Made by a program: the position numbers and the translations under genes. DNA of 64,000 nucleotides from Podarcis pityusensis (taxonomy: Eukaryota): assembly GCA_964106645.2 (NCBI GenBank), contig OZ067038.1, one strand, 5' to 3'. How positions within the stretch are numbered: the first letter of the stretch is position 1; each line of letters starts with the position of its first letter. Of this stretch, positions 10,901-21,100 are shown piece after piece. Under the pieces are notes generated by a model. It did not search any database and was not told the DNA's origin. It was given only the letters and a program-made list of their open reading frames with translations.

Positions 10901-13262
10901 GTACAGGGGTGGCCCTGGAATGTGGAAGGGAATTAGGTCTCTTCCCCAAGCCACACTCAAGAAACAATTATGTCAGTCATGAAAACCGCATGTCACGGTG
11001 AGTGACTTGTTGGGTGCCCCCAACACAGTCTGCAGCACCTCACAGAGGAGGGCCCAGAAGCACTGAAATGCTGCTACCAGATGTCAAGGGTCAAGGCCAA
11101 TTTCTATGCTCCAATGGCAACACGGTTGCCGTCCACTTCTTCACATGTCAGGGCCCCATTTTGCAGCCGTAAAGATATGAAGCCACAACTGCGTGGTTTG
11201 CATGGCTAGTTCACACAGCATTACCTATGTGGAATTATGGCAATTTATAAATAAGGGTGCGGAGAACAGTCTGAAAACCAATGTACAAGAGTTTTTTGTT
11301 CAGTCGGAAAATAGCACAGATAGTTAGAGAGAACATTAACAAGAGGCATGTCCCAAAACATTTTCAGACCTGGGTTTAAGGCAAATTTTGAATTAACAAA
11401 TAAACAATTCATTTGTAACCATGTGCATGTGAGGCAGCTATATCTCACATGCAAGAAGTGTGCAAAGCTATATATCCACAACAAACTTTAAAATGACATT
11501 CAATTTCATTTAAGTGCCAAGGCTTTTTCCCGGCAAATTCTGTGAAGGGAGCTAGGAGCTCTAATTGGAGGATTCTAAGCATCTTTATAAAACGTATTAT
11601 TCCCAGAATTCCTTGGGAAAAACAACTTCTTCATTTATATTGTAAATGTACTCCAAGATCAAAAGGAGTTTAATGTTGAAATAACTTTACAGCAATACTT
11701 TTTTAAAAAGCATTTCCCCCTTCTTGGCAGACTTACCCTTCTAGATTCTAGAATGCAATGCAATGGGTTGTGAACGAGAAATAAAAAGCAGGAAACACTT
11801 ATCTATGACTTACTATGCTCTGAAGTTCTGAGGCCTCCTTTAGATGGATCTGTTCAAGGTTATCTGGAACCACATGGTAGTGACCTTTACTCTTCTCATA
11901 TTTCTTCTTGTACTGGTACTAAAGGGGAAGGTGTCAAAAACCACCTCAATAACAAAAAGGCCTAACCTGATCAGCTTTCTAGCTCCAGCCAATCCAACCA
12001 TTTCAACAGAAAAACAAGAAACCCAAAGCATTTTTTAAAAAAAGGAAAAGAAGAAGAAGAAGAAGAAAAAGGAATACATAAAGGGGTGGGGGAGGGAGAA
12101 AAAAATCTCAGACTAATGCCGAAGCACTTGTGATAGCTACTTTTCCCTTGCAATATTATGCAAGAAGGAACAAGATATCGTAAGTAAATAAAAAGAAAAC
12201 CCCCAAAAAAGAAAGAAGGAAGAACAAAAGAAATATAGTGAATATGTGATACAATTAAAATGGAAGACAACGCCACATCTTCTCTTGTTAGCATATTCAT
12301 CATTCTGTGGTCTAACAGCAGGATGATAAAAGTTCAGCAAAAGCAGAATTAATTTTGAAAAGGTTTTAAAAAGTTAAAAGAAGAAGAATGTTGAAATAAC
12401 ATTAAGCATAAAAAATATTGAAATCAAAAGGAAGAAAATGGTATTCCTGTTAGTCAAAAAGGAAAGTTAAAAAGGCCAAAAAAAAAAAAAAAGCCATTTA
12501 CATGTGGTTAGAGGTTTTACGATATTAGCAGTTCTACAGCTAATAGAAAATGCTTGAGAGACTAGGGGTATTAATTAGTCCGCATGAGGAACACTCATTA
12601 GGCAGGGGAGAAGAGAGATCACTACCAGGTGATTTCCTAGGAACAGTCAAGGAGGAAAGCTGTTACAGAAATTGTTAGCGGATATTATCTCAGAAAGGCA
12701 GATGGATGAAATGCTAAAGTGAATATGGTCTGAGATGAGCTAAGAGGCTTACAGAACTGGCGAGCTGGCTGGTGTTCAAGACATGATGCATCGACAGGGA
12801 TTCAGACATGTCTGTCACTGGTTTGTGAAGTTTCTTCAGGTCCGCCTTATATTTAATCTGATGGGGGAAGTTCAAAGAAACGCAATAAAGGAAAAGGCAA
12901 ACAACACTTAGAAATCGGATGCATTAAAAAGGAACAGGACTCAGTCAGACTTTGCATCAAAATGTTGTGGGGGCAGGGCACTGGGGCAAGAGGTGGTTAA
13001 TGAGATCAGCATTACTGCAAATGTTCCTTAAATGATTTGTAGCAAAGTTGCCAGGCACATGTTCCCTTAGGGAAATTCAGGTACATGGCCCAACAAGGCT
13101 AGGAGATGGTTGAAGGTGACAACTCATCATCACTATTTTCTGTGGTTGTGCCTGCTTGTGGAATGTGCTCATCTGACACCTTCATTACATAACCTTAGGT
13201 GCCAGGCAAAAAAAATCCTCTTCTCCTAGCCCTTTGGCTAATTAAACAATCTGTGGCCTTTT

Positions 13263-13303
<41 letters not shown>

Positions 13304-13391
13304 TGTTGTTTGATACTAAAGCATGTATTTTTGTATTTTTATATTGTAAACTGCCCTATGATCCTCAGATGAAAGTTGGTATAGAAATGTA

Positions 13392-13435
<44 letters not shown>

Positions 13436-16400
13436 TATCCCTCCCTTCGGCCAGTATTATGTTCAGGGGCTCAACTCCCAGTTCTGCCTCATACTCTGTT
13501 TCATGGACAAGCTGCTTGTCCCTTATGAATAGCTACTTCCCTCAAGGCAGACATTTTGTGACTAGTCATGGTCTCCCAGCTGCCATTATGTGGTGATACT
13601 CATAAGCTTTTCCAAATGGGCCCATGAGCCTGAAAAGGGTTGGTAACTACTGGCCTAAAGGCCCACACATACCTCGCTAGCGATGTGGTGGGCATCTTTT
13701 AAGGTCTTGTAGATCTTGGCTTCCTTCAGGTCGTATTGCGGCTTATTGCCCTTCTCCTTGTCAAACTTCTCTTTGTATTTGATCTAATTCCAAGAGGAAC
13801 AAGTGTTAAAACAAGGTCCTGAATTTTAGCTTGTCTGGTGCCAAGGGAGAAAGAGTCCACATTCAGATTGTCAAAACTGATCCCAATTGCAAGCAGACAG
13901 GTCGAACAATGCAAGCCATAAGACCTCTTTGAAAAGAAGATACCATTAACGAAGGCCAGGAAAATTCACGTGATGCAGCAATGAACTTGGCACACACTGC
14001 ATTTACAAGATTTCATGTTGCGTCTTTCATTCAGTAGTTGTGTTTCAGCTCCACATTTGAAATATATAACTCATTCATGGGGGGCGGTCCTGAATGTTGT
14101 GTGTGTGTAGCATGGCTATCAAGAGACACAAGAGCTAAATTATGACTGCATTGTGCATTTTTCTGTGGCCTAAAATGGGCCTAAAATAGAAACATCTGAC
14201 TTTCTAAATACTTCTTTCCTGCCTTCCCTCCAAGGGATTTTGAGCAGCATTCAAGTCTCAGGGTAGATCTACACACAGGGGGAAAAACGCTATAAATACT
14301 GTAAGTCAGAAACTAGATCGTTGTAACAAAAAATTTAAAAACCCCTATGGGAAATTTTCCTGCTCTCTGGCGTCATCTGGTGTTGCATGTTTATAGTGCA
14401 TGCAAATCATTTTTTCTTTACTAATGATGAAAGTAGGTTTGACGGAGACTGTAATTTGCCCAAGACTCCTCCCCCTACTAAATTTTACAGCTCAGCATGG
14501 TTTTAAACCAAGATTTGCTACACTGGAGCCCAGTGTTCTCCCAATACACTGCCTAATCAAAGAGGCAGCTGCATTTGATCTGATAACTATAATTATTGGC
14601 TTTAAGAGAAATTGCAAAAAGACTGTGATTTTAAATAAAAAGACATGTTCATGATAGAGAATAAAGGTCCTGCTAGATGCTCTATTCTCTCAGTACTAGA
14701 ATTCAGAAGAATACTATACTGCACTTTTATTTACAATGACTTTCCTATGCCCTCTGATGGACAGTCCAGTTCTGCCTGACAATTGAAGTGAGCAAATGCA
14801 GCTTGGTTACTTTCATTCTAATGGAGGAATAAACAGATTCACCATGTTTTCAGTCGAAGAACTTGCCAGGGGATATTACTGCTTACTAGTACTTTGCACT
14901 GTTAGTGTGCAAAGCACATAGAGCAAGGTTCTTAAGACTGAAAAGCTTCATTATCAAATGCTCCATAAAAGAAGAGGTAAGATATTAGTCATTTGCTAAA
15001 GAGAGAGAAAATAGCAGTTATACAAATCCTGGCATGAACCAGCAAAAATTAAGCACCTGGATTCCAAATGATTTCAACGAGAGCTTATGATGTATTTTAG
15101 CCCTCTCATGTTGAAATCAATGGTTTGATATGCTTAATGTTACAGGGATGGCACCCAGTCTTCACCCCACCCCTGGCAAGAGCTGATTGACGTAACTGAT
15201 GAAAGGAATAGATCATGCTAGGGAGCAATGCACATGGCTGAAAAGAAGAAAAGTTTAACGTTAGAAAACGGGAAGATGCCGCAGTGCAGATTTCAATCCC
15301 ATTCCACGATTCTGGATGTCTAAAACATGTTGGCATGTTTTTATCCACACAACCCTGTATCCTTCATGCTGGATAGCCTCATCTTTGGGACATGGGTTGC
15401 CAAAAGATGCCAGTGGTCAATATTCAAGTGACAGTCAAGTATACTGTTTATGTTTACTTTTTAAAAAATGCCGGACACTCTGGGCACTGACGCTCTTGAG
15501 AAGGAAAAGACTCTTCCTACAATGACACAGACACACACAAACACAAATGACGTATTACAGGTAGGTGGGGACCATTATGGGCCACCACAATTCAGATATG
15601 CATTTTGTGCCTGAATAGTGGCTCCACAGGGCACAAGCTACTTTCTTAGAATACTCTGTGGGTTTCAAAAGCATTTTGACAATTGTCGTGAGGACCCACT
15701 AGATCAAAATGCAAGTCTCTCGTTAATACTTGCGATTTCCATCAGGATTCCGTACTTGCTAAACAAGATTTGTTAATGGATATGAGATAATGAACAAAAA
15801 ACTATGGATGATTGGCAGAGAAGCTGAGGGAAGTCCAAAAGTTGAAATTTGTGAAAATGTTTGATATGGTGATATTTGTATAATGGAAAATTTAATAAAA
15901 ATTATTATATAAAAAAGAGATAATGAACAAAAAACAAGAGGCAAAGGGACTTGTTTCAATATTAAAACAAAAAGCAGCAACAAAACCATAAGACACAGTA
16001 TACAAGAGTATCAATAGCAGTGACAACATAGATGACATAAGACACTGTGTAGATGGTGTTTTGACAGTTTTCATGGCAAATTCCTGCTGTTTCTCACAAG
16101 TAGAGAAAGACGGTTTCTCTGACATGCAGCTGTCCCATGCAACAATCACAAAGAGAAATGGGAAATAAAGCACCCCCTTTTATTCCTTATGAAATTTCTG
16201 TCCATAACCTGTAGAAAATTGGTGCAAATATGTCATTTACTTTCTAAGCAATTTGAAAGCGAGTGAAGAATCATCTGAAAATGTCTGTCCGCAAATAACA
16301 GTAGTTAAGGAGCTATTTGCAAGAGTTTAGGAATTTGTTTGAAGGTAATTCATCAGAAGCCTTTCCCCTAAATTGGTGGCTTTTAATAGGGGTGTCCACA

Positions 16401-16849
16401 TTGTTATATTCAATGAATGTAGACTTTGAGGACTGTGTACAGAAATAGTTGAGCTGTTCACTCGTACAATTTTTTACATGCAGCATTCCACAAGAGCATA
16501 TTTTGTGTACCTGCAGCAGTTGAGCTATAAGAGCTTGTACCTGTGCTCAGTGCAATGTGTGGACAAGCTTATTCTGTTTCAAGAAACTCTGGGTTCTTAG
16601 TGAGAAGGTCAGTAATGATGAACTAGCTTCCCTGAACAACAGCTTGTCCACTGCTACTGCTCCTCCTCTGCGATCCTGGAGAGGATTGGGAATGTTCCAG
16701 GATATATTCTCAGTTAATTCAGGGCAACAAAAGTGGTTCCTGAAGTCTGGGCAGCATTCTACATCAACTGACTGTGCACATGAACTGGGGAGAAAGCACA
16801 CTGCAGAGTGCACAGTTGTATTCAAGTGCAGATAGCTGCCACAGTTCCC

Positions 16850-16885
<36 letters not shown>

Positions 16886-18113
16886 CAGAGCATGGGTTGT
16901 GCTCTTAACACACTGACATGAAAACTAGTGAATGCTTCAGGAATTGCCACCAATGTCATATAGAGGGAAGTGTAAATGTTTGACTAAATTCCCCACTTTC
17001 ATGTATTTTGGACAACTCAAGCTTTTCCTTGAAGCCGAGACATTCTCAGAACAAATTCCCAAGCAGAACTTTGCATAAGGAAGAAAGGGGAGGGCTCACA
17101 AATCCACAAGGTTTTAATGTTCTTTTTCAAAAATAAAAATAGAAGCAGTGCCTCGAACACTTAGGATTGTGCCAAGAATATAGAATCTAGCAAGAGACTC
17201 ATGAAATTGGTAGCAGCATAGGAGAGCCGCTTAAAATCCATCTTACATGGCTACTTAGGACATTAGCTTTCTTAACGTGTCTCATCATGGGCGTGTCGTA
17301 TGATGCAGCCCCATGGCCCCTCATGCGTCCTTTGATGTATTCTGCCTACAAAGCGTAGCAAGATAGCAAGATTAGAATGGCAAACCTCCAAGATGGACAA
17401 AGCAAGAAGCTGAGGTAGAAGAGCCGGTGATATTCTTGTCTTTGTGGGGGGCAGGGAGTCTCGTGGGAAGCAGCATGGGTCAGAAACGCACCAAGTGAAG
17501 TCGGTCAGTGTTTGTCAGAGAGGAAAGAGGCATACGCTAGCACCAAAACGCAAAAAGTTAACACGTTGTTTGAAGTGTTTTCCCTGAGGGGAAAGTCCAG
17601 TGCTGCTACCCTCACTATAGAAATATATAACAGCACAAACATTAAAATGTCTGCCAAAGAAAATTGATAAGGGAAGAACTGGAGAGAAGACAATAAAAAG
17701 AAACATTTTACCTCCCAGTATACAGCAAATGACCAAACATTTACGGCATGTTTTTTAACACAAAAATTGTTTCAGGTCATTGGTATGGGAGCCCGGTGCC
17801 TTCCATATGTTGTTGGACTCCAGTTCAACTCTTAGCATCAAAGTTTGGCATGGTCAGGGATCTGCTAAGGACCAGCACTCCAGCAGGGCACCCGCTGAAC
17901 CTCCCTTCACCACAACCAACCTGCTTGTTCACTCATCTTTTGCTCTGGCTCAGACAATACTGGTGATGTAAAGGATGAGATGAACCCTTGGGGGGTTTTG
18001 TGGGGGATTTTTGCGGGGGGGGGGTGTTTTCCATTGTATTCAAAACAGAAATAAATCATTTTAAATGCCAGGTAAGAGTTTAGTAATATAAACCAAAGAG
18101 AGAGAGAAAGGGA

Positions 18114-18165
<52 letters not shown>

Positions 18166-21100
18166 CAGACAAGCCCAGGCCCATGGAAACATGAATCTGG
18201 ATTACTTCGATCAGTGCTACTTTGTGAGAACAGAGACTCTGATTACACAAGGAGTTCCTCTCCCACTCAGTATAATGGGTGAGGCAGCTCCCTGTGTGTA
18301 AAGGGCTCAGTAATTGTTTCTTCAATGAGCTAAATAGGAAGCTCACCTACATAGGGACACAATACACAGAGTATAGCATCCACGTACCGCAGCAGACTTC
18401 AAAGGCCGTCAATACCTTTCAGAACAATCTAACCCCTAGGTCAAGAGCTTGATCAGGGATGGTAGAGTTGGAAGGGACCACGAGGGCCATCTAGCCCAAA
18501 CCCCTGCAAGGCAGGAATCTTTTTGCCCGGCGTGGGGCTCGAACCCACAATCCTGAGATTAAGAGACACAAGCTCTACTGACTTCGCTAACTTTCGGGAC
18601 GGGGTGGGTGAGAGGCTTTGGTGGCAGCAGTAAAACAAGGAGATATTGAAGTACATACACCAGAGTCCAGCACCCAGATGTGGATGCAAATTGCCCACTC
18701 CCCAGATATCAGATTGATGATTGGATGACCAGAGATAAGGAAATAATCTCCTCCCTCATTGGATCTGTATAGAATAGTGGAGGGGGGGGGTAGGCTCTTT
18801 GCTTGTACCGTATATTTATGTGCATATGAGATGGTGAGGTGGCCACAACCACGATTGACAGACAGCCCTGGAAGATTTGGCCAGAAAATATTAACCACCC
18901 CGATCTCAAATAAATTATCTCTAAAGCTGCTTTATCTGTAAAGTCAACATTACATCAAAATGATTGCAAAAGAAAATGTATGCCATATGGTTATAAGTTG
19001 AAGCAGCCACCTGTTCATACCTGGCTTGTAAGTTTGGACACCTCCTTGGCAAGTTCAATATCTGGACGTCCAAGCATGCTGACTCCCAGACCAGCTTCTC
19101 CACGAGCTTTGGCTTTATATTCAATCTAAGACGAATATATGAAATGTCAAGGGGTTAAAAAAACCAAAAACAAAACCCCCCTCTGGCTTCTACATACTGA
19201 AATGAAACTATTTATATGCATGCTGTCATATTGCCACAAGTTGCTGAACAGTTACACTGATAAAGTACTTACATCACTGACTAAATGGGAGACTTGGGTG
19301 GCTTTCTTAATATCAGGGCGATCCGCCACACTAGTGTAATGGAGCTTGGATTTGGCATCCTTTTTGTATTGGATCTAGGTGAACACAAGGATAAAGAGAA
19401 GCAGTTACTGTTGTGTTTTCTTTTTAAGGAAAGAACAAGATCCTTTGGATGATAATGTTTTCACCAGAGCTATTGTTGATGCCCACCACCCATGCAAAAA
19501 CTGCATACGTTTCACTGTAATGAAACAAAGTCTGCATGGAAAAGCTACAGCCACCCATGTCAGCGTGTGTTTCTCCTATAGCCCACGGCTTCGAAAGGAT
19601 TATTCCTTAGATTGCCCATCCAGGGTTTAAATGAGGTAACTGGAGGAAGAACTTACAGTGCTCTGATTCTTTGCAACTTCCATGGCGTGTTTCACATCAG
19701 GAGGCTCCAGCATGATTGAATAGTCTGACTTGCCTTTCTCCTTGTGGAATTTCTTTTTATAATTTGTCTGTTTCGGAACAGAAGAGAGTTGTGTCACACA
19801 TTCTTCACCTGAGGCTTACTTTGCCGACATTTATAATAAGAAACATAGGTGATGACTTCTACGCTTAAGGAAGACAGGTGCGCATTCGTGTGGGCGCTCA
19901 CACATGCACTTGTAGGTTAACTAGCTTTGTTTCCTGATCTGCTGCAAGTTTTCCTCTACGGTCAGAAGCTCTCCACATTAAAAAGAGAGAGGGAGAGATT
20001 CAAAGGGCAGCTACATAAACGAGAATAAAGTTGACTGTAAGGACTGGTCCCTATGTGGAAAGCCCATCAGTCAAAAACACTTTGCTTACAGCTGTCAACA
20101 AACAGATATTGCATTGAATGGGTGTTCCCCTGATGATTTATGGCTATTTAATCCAGCAGAGATTTTCGTCAGTCAAACAAAGATCAAGGTGATCTTCAGT
20201 GATTGCTCCTTCCTCCACCAACCCCATGCTCCTGCGTGCTGGGGAACCCTTTGGAAGAATATAAAAGATGGGACACGTACCCAAAATCATAGGGGGCGAG
20301 CACCAAGCAATTACTTAACCTATATCTCAATTGCTCCATCCATATTCTATTTACAGTTATTTTAAAATGACTAGAAATAATTAACTGCAATGAACCCAAT
20401 TTTGCATATGTTTATACACACACACACACACACACTGTTGTAGTTCTTCAGCCGCTACCAATGCCACTCATTTCTATCACACTCTTTAATTTGTAAAGCG
20501 TTTCAAAACCTTTGCTCTATGTTCATAATCAGGTCCCTTACCAACAATTAATTCAAACAGGCATGGATCGCGCAAACTCATGTCAGAAGAAACAATTTCT
20601 AGATTTGACAGCCTACAGAAATATATTTGAAGGCATTCTCTCTTTTTTTCAACACGCTAAGCTTCCATCTACACACGATTTCAGAAACTCTGTTCAACCA
20701 CGTTATTAAACTTATGCTGATATTTAACTATGTGAGCTGACAGGCTGGTGTAAGTAACATCAGCCCTGGTGAACAGGGAGCAGCACCATTTTAGTAAGGC
20801 GTAATTAGCATGAAGTATAATTTATAATAGAGCAACAACAGTTTCCATCACCGAGTAAACAAAACAAATGCAAGCGTCAACTCAACCGGTGATGTGACTA
20901 TAGTAATGCAAAAGCAGTTTACCTCACTGACGTTCTTGGTTACGTTTTTGACATGAACAGTGTCTCGTGTTTCTGGCAATTTTGTAAAGGAGCCATGTGG
21001 CAGGTGCTTCTTAACATGTTCTTTGTATTTGTTCTGGTGATGAAGAGAAACAACAGTTATTGAAGTAATATATATTTAATAAGGAATAAATGCTGAAAAC

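Follow-up and report, generated by a model that had tools for sequence, protein, structure and literature searches.

The question raised by this locus was whether an open segment in the nebulin gene of Podarcis pityusensis is a true exon, whether it is optional, and whether it is new. The window, which is the whole stretch of 64,000 nucleotides analysed here, contains about 68 nebulin exons on the minus strand and runs from the late super-repeats to the first Z-repeats. At 17345-17247 (-) lies a segment of 99 nt in phase 0 that is bounded by AG and GT and encodes 33 amino acids, equal to one nebulin module. An earlier note on this DNA had described it as a clean exon with a ttgtag acceptor, a GTAAGA donor and a branch-like site, and the coordinates, the strand, the frame and the peptide were all confirmed. 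Its placement was also correct. The upstream neighbour at 19125-19021 (-) carries halves of M163 and M164 and the downstream neighbour at 13783-13673 (-) halves of M164 and M165, and both introns are long, with 1675 nt upstream (17346..19020, minus strand) and 3463 nt downstream (13784..17246, minus strand). The latter was the longest intron remaining in the window after initially missed exons had been filled in. Searched with the 301 nt around the exon, the 1.5-Gb genome gave a single match. High-copy interspersed repeat fragments with loose ends and a very high depth were observed in the flanking introns at about 18460-18565, 13170-13440, 14260-14460 and 15800-15920.

The module character was assessed by scanning all AG..GT open frames in the window, which yielded 73 candidates, with an HMM built from the window's own single-module exons. 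The exon scored 14.5 bits, within the range of the other true exons of the same scan (11.8-25.9 bits), and eight non-module candidates had 2.2 bits or less or no score. With the Pfam Nebulin model PF00880, it reached 15.2 bits and stayed under the gathering cut-off of 20.1. An annotated-type neighbour exon was likewise below it at 16.3 bits, and none of four neighbouring true exons tested singly passed, because the exons straddle the Pfam repeats. Simple-repeat exons of nebulin are in phase 0, have about 31-38 codons and carry half an actin-binding motif at both ends. The exon shares these features with 33 codons and with Tyr3 and Ser32 aligned to the invariant columns of seven neighbours, and the junction motif upstream of its module is degenerate, since Tyr is followed by Ile. 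Searches with the module returned no match in the PDB sequences and no usable match in the ESM Atlas. A word-index search with the exon and its intron read-through found nothing among proteins of up to 2000 amino acids, which is a weak result since nebulins are longer.

When the exons were counted from the 143/144 pair, assuming a one-to-one correspondence, the two neighbours corresponded to human exons 154 and 155. The same count placed the Z-repeats at exon 166, in agreement with their published numbering. [quoted passage not shown] Further upstream, 63824-61824 and 57735-55878 (-) are two near-identical runs of four exons one super-repeat apart. We take them for the product of a recent duplication of a super-repeat, such as Gohlke et al. 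describe.

Splicing was followed in sequencing runs from related organisms, which were available as assembled contigs with a guessed RNA status and without labels for tissue or stage. Out of 24 runs listed, 18 were RNA-type by this guess and six were others; seven RNA-type runs and one other were examined. The joints for inclusion, 19021>17345 and 17247>13783, and for skipping, 19021>13783, were found together in five of the seven RNA-type runs (X1, X4, X7, X8 and X15), which come from five studies and the organisms A-D. All joints were at GT-AG ends. Run X16 had the upstream inclusion joint alone, bringing 19021>17345 to six of the seven runs. Its contig over 16893-17344 has the exon joined to the upstream exon with the downstream intron still attached, a hint from a single contig that the 3.5-kb downstream intron is removed later than the upstream one. 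Run X3 showed no splice joint across the stretch and carries no weight either way, and the DNA run X20 covered all bins and showed no splice joint.

The ratios of inclusion to skipping in contig depth were 0.38, 0.30, 0.46, 0.32 and 0.25 in the five runs. These are rough values that put inclusion at about 25-46%, contig depth being a poor measure of inclusion. In X4, X7, X8 and X15, the contigs over the exon had no difference over 96-98 nt, and the neighbouring exons in X4 differed by 3/103, 3/104 and 2/113. The segment is thus a cassette exon: transcripts of related species either include it or skip it, in frame both ways. The earlier note had suggested a regulated cassette and named these three junctions among those to check, and all three were seen. 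Both its identity and its cassette status are in our judgement nearly certain.

The downstream intron contains another segment with AG/GT ends, 59 nt long, at 15516-15458 (-). Its donor was joined to 13783 in run X1 only, at a depth of 3.5, and no acceptor joint was seen in the runs examined. The segment shifts the frame and the first stop falls in the next exon, so that it may be a minor poison exon or mere noise in splicing.

The distribution of the module was determined by protein searches. Among 1.84 billion representatives, phmmer found five matches. In three of them (sea lamprey, Brienomyrus and Dissostichus), the module is flanked by the same neighbours on both sides. The matches in pig and amphioxus aligned to other modules; the pig isoform joins the two neighbouring modules directly without the cassette module. 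The sea lamprey module is 63% identical over 32 amino acids and was present in 15 of the 15 Petromyzon isoforms listed. When the search was started from the Brienomyrus region, the module was located in 115 of the best 120 of 1189 ray-finned fish matches, teleosts and gar included, and the search pattern missed it in the other five; these fish were picked by their likeness to an exon-bearing query and are uninformative on skipping in fish. Started from the lamprey region, the search yielded 53 matches, namely five lamprey, one newt, one snakehead and 46 artiodactyl entries, and the module sequence was displayed for 31 of the latter. This search was word-limited and covered cluster representatives only, so that the lack of bird, reptile, primate and rodent matches does not mean absence.

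The newt module shares 22 of 33 residues. NCBI models of oryx, buffalo, cattle, goat, sheep and camels have the module, and in those of Petromyzon (XP_032807711.1), Brienomyrus (XP_048862253.1), Danio (XP_021334584.1), Oryx dammah and Bubalus it is at the same position with the same neighbours. The teleost models have shorter copies in which the Tyr of the actin-binding motif is missing, yet their HGAAS(Y/F)DT(P/L) core is almost unchanged, whereas the artiodactyl copies are two residues longer. From its sequence and its constant neighbours, the module is orthologous from lamprey to artiodactyls and the exon is an ancestral vertebrate exon.

The exon has also been in print. Gohlke et al. (2021, J Gen Physiol, PMC7754682) place in M164 what they call a 'newly identified possible exon', in the legend of Fig. 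3 and in Data S2; the main text has the phrase once. The alignment shows it in 45 of 53 species rows, human included, and only in part for horse and carp. Rows of primates, bat, rabbit, koala and elephant are among the 45. It is absent from eight rows (four rodents, pig, cheetah, ermine and trout). In many non-primate placental rows and in tarsier, the module is two residues longer than in the simian, koala and reptile rows. The flanking modules in the window resemble those of the viper row, and the 'possible exon', with the same slot, module, HGAASYDTP core and flanking modules as the exon studied here, is its orthologue. According to the same paper, the human and mouse annotation lacks the exon, which accounts for the earlier note naming no human counterpart; an open copy nevertheless stands in the human row of Data S2 and in those of other primates. 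The exon is therefore already known, both in print and in database models. The note had treated an annotated equivalent in mammals or birds as evidence that the exon is not new, and such equivalents exist in the artiodactyl NCBI models.

In the parts of Gohlke et al. available, the exon is treated in a legend sentence and an alignment label, without expression, inclusion level or regulation. No junction or functional data on it were found in the open-licence PMC and bioRxiv literature, and the available text of PMC6200726, PMC7370890, PMC11153343, PMC11026289 and PMC11525221 does not mention it. PMC11026289 states that PSI was computed on the exons of NM_001271208. Novel mouse Neb exons reported in PMC7370890 were considered as the same exon and rejected, since that text places them between mouse exons 147 and 148. 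What is added here is the squamate joints that show the splicing to be optional, an orthologue in lamprey and a cluster of YGCY motifs.

This cluster lies in the 3' splice region (17346..17425, minus strand), which comprises the ttgtag acceptor, a CTAAT branch-like site 30 nt upstream of the exon and five YGCY motifs at -59, -37, -23, -15 and -10 that overlap the pyrimidine tract. The acceptor is fairly weak: scored out of sample at 6.9 bits, it surpasses no more than 10 of the 54 training exons. The 5' splice site GTAAGA (17241..17246, minus strand) is of average strength with 9.8 bits, above 27 of the 54. The earlier note had called the upstream intron rich in YGCY, and the counts of five in 80 nt and ten in 250 nt were indeed the highest among the 63 exons mapped; the other 62 had means of 0.84 and 2.98 and maxima of 4 and 8. 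Only 2 of 800 and 1 of 256 window tiles reached these counts. Dinucleotide shuffling gave marginal p values of 0.065 (80 nt) and 0.045 (250 nt). A single intronic contig over the cluster differed by 4/166 and other intron pieces of the same run by 4/165 and 8/207, so that no extra conservation of the cluster was seen. The excess is suggestive, not strong. MBNL bound upstream of an exon represses its inclusion. Partial inclusion would then likely result from the weak acceptor together with MBNL bound to the YGCY motifs that overlap the pyrimidine tract, and from the motifs we regard MBNL control of the exon as a tentative possibility.

The main rival explanation is that the exon is a near-neutral relic, constitutive in fish and decaying in amniotes, which is included in part through its weak acceptor and has no regulated role. 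The eight rows without the exon in the available alignment belong to separate lineages, and with its absence from several species the exon seems dispensable; the missing annotation in human and mouse fits this as well. The zebrafish counterpart, exon 118 by a count inferred from the SR20-R5 pair, is not among the skipped exons in the available part of PMC11153343. However, compared by eye with the Data S2 rows, the window peptide is identical to turtle and alligator at 29 of 33 residues each and to human at 25 of 33, more than the flanking exons are to oryx (22/35 and 19/37). The absence of nucleotide differences in the contigs of four relatives also argues against decay, and the inclusion is substantial, not a trace. 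We consider the relic explanation unlikely.

A second explanation is that the exon replaces 19125-19021 as a mutually exclusive partner, as the earlier note had offered as an alternative. The two exons are similar in length and phase, and the gene has such a pair in the counterparts of human exons 143 and 144. This reading is, however, refuted by the joints seen, since the 19021>17345 joint in six of the seven runs has both exons in one RNA, the 19273>17345 joint that would bypass 19125-19021 was found in none of the seven RNA-type runs, and database proteins carry both modules in tandem. A sauropsid-specific novelty or a loss in all mammals, both raised in the earlier note, would agree with the exon missing from the pig isoform and from the human and mouse annotation as reported, but is refuted by the presence of the module in 46 artiodactyl entries (displayed for 31), in newt, fish and lamprey, and in the primate, bat, rabbit, koala and elephant rows; of that suggestion, only the ancestral origin stands.

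The preferred reading is that of an ancestral cassette exon. A review (PMC7109182) puts a CapZ site in M160-M164 and desmin binding in M163-M170, and M160-M175 is reported to target Z-bands (PMC2175182). Skipping would give the standard M164, and inclusion would split M164 and add one module. The SxxxYK motif would be kept at the downstream junction and a degenerate S-x-x-x-Y-I-K added upstream, and nebulin would be longer by about one repeat, which is 5.5 nm according to a Table 1 note in Gohlke et al. Partial super-repeats are not tolerated in nebulin; since the slot does not belong to the seven-module register of the super-repeats, one additional module is plausibly tolerated. Very probably, then, the exon is an ancestral cassette whose inclusion is likely to add an actin-contacting module at the Z-disc edge and to alter the CapZ/desmin-binding region. 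The near-invariant HGAASYDTP core would make a sequence-specific contact beyond plain actin spacing, and its retention in teleosts that lost the Tyr suggests such a partner contact. Whether the exon slightly retunes the nebulin anchor at the Z-disc edge is a matter on which we are evenly divided.

Two known systems in the same gene are comparable. Human exons 143/144 (S21a/S21b, in the available text of PMC6200726) are likewise single-module alternative exons near the C-terminal end, but they swap a module inside a super-repeat, whereas the cassette exon adds one outside the super-repeats. The Z-repeat cassette exons (human 166-177, M176-M182) are also optional single modules that alter the length of the Z-disc end; they have 31 amino acids with an SSVLYK motif and are about eleven exons downstream, whereas the exon studied here encodes a 33-amino-acid module of the linker region.

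In conclusion, the joints show that in squamates the exon, so far a 'possible' one, is spliced and optional. Its module is closer between reptile and human than the neighbouring modules are between reptile and oryx, yet the human reference transcript of this major myopathy gene lacks it, and the joints found here define the junctions to seek in human muscle data. It is conceivable, though improbable, that M164 of human NEB contains a 184th exon that is live but unannotated. This exon would be constitutive in fish and a cassette in amniotes; MBNL would repress it in adult muscle, and its inclusion would be raised in fetal, slow or myotonic-dystrophy muscle, where it would retune the CapZ/desmin anchor. 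If this is true, nemaline-myopathy diagnostics would miss variants in the human exon, and rodents, which lack the exon, would be unable to model it.
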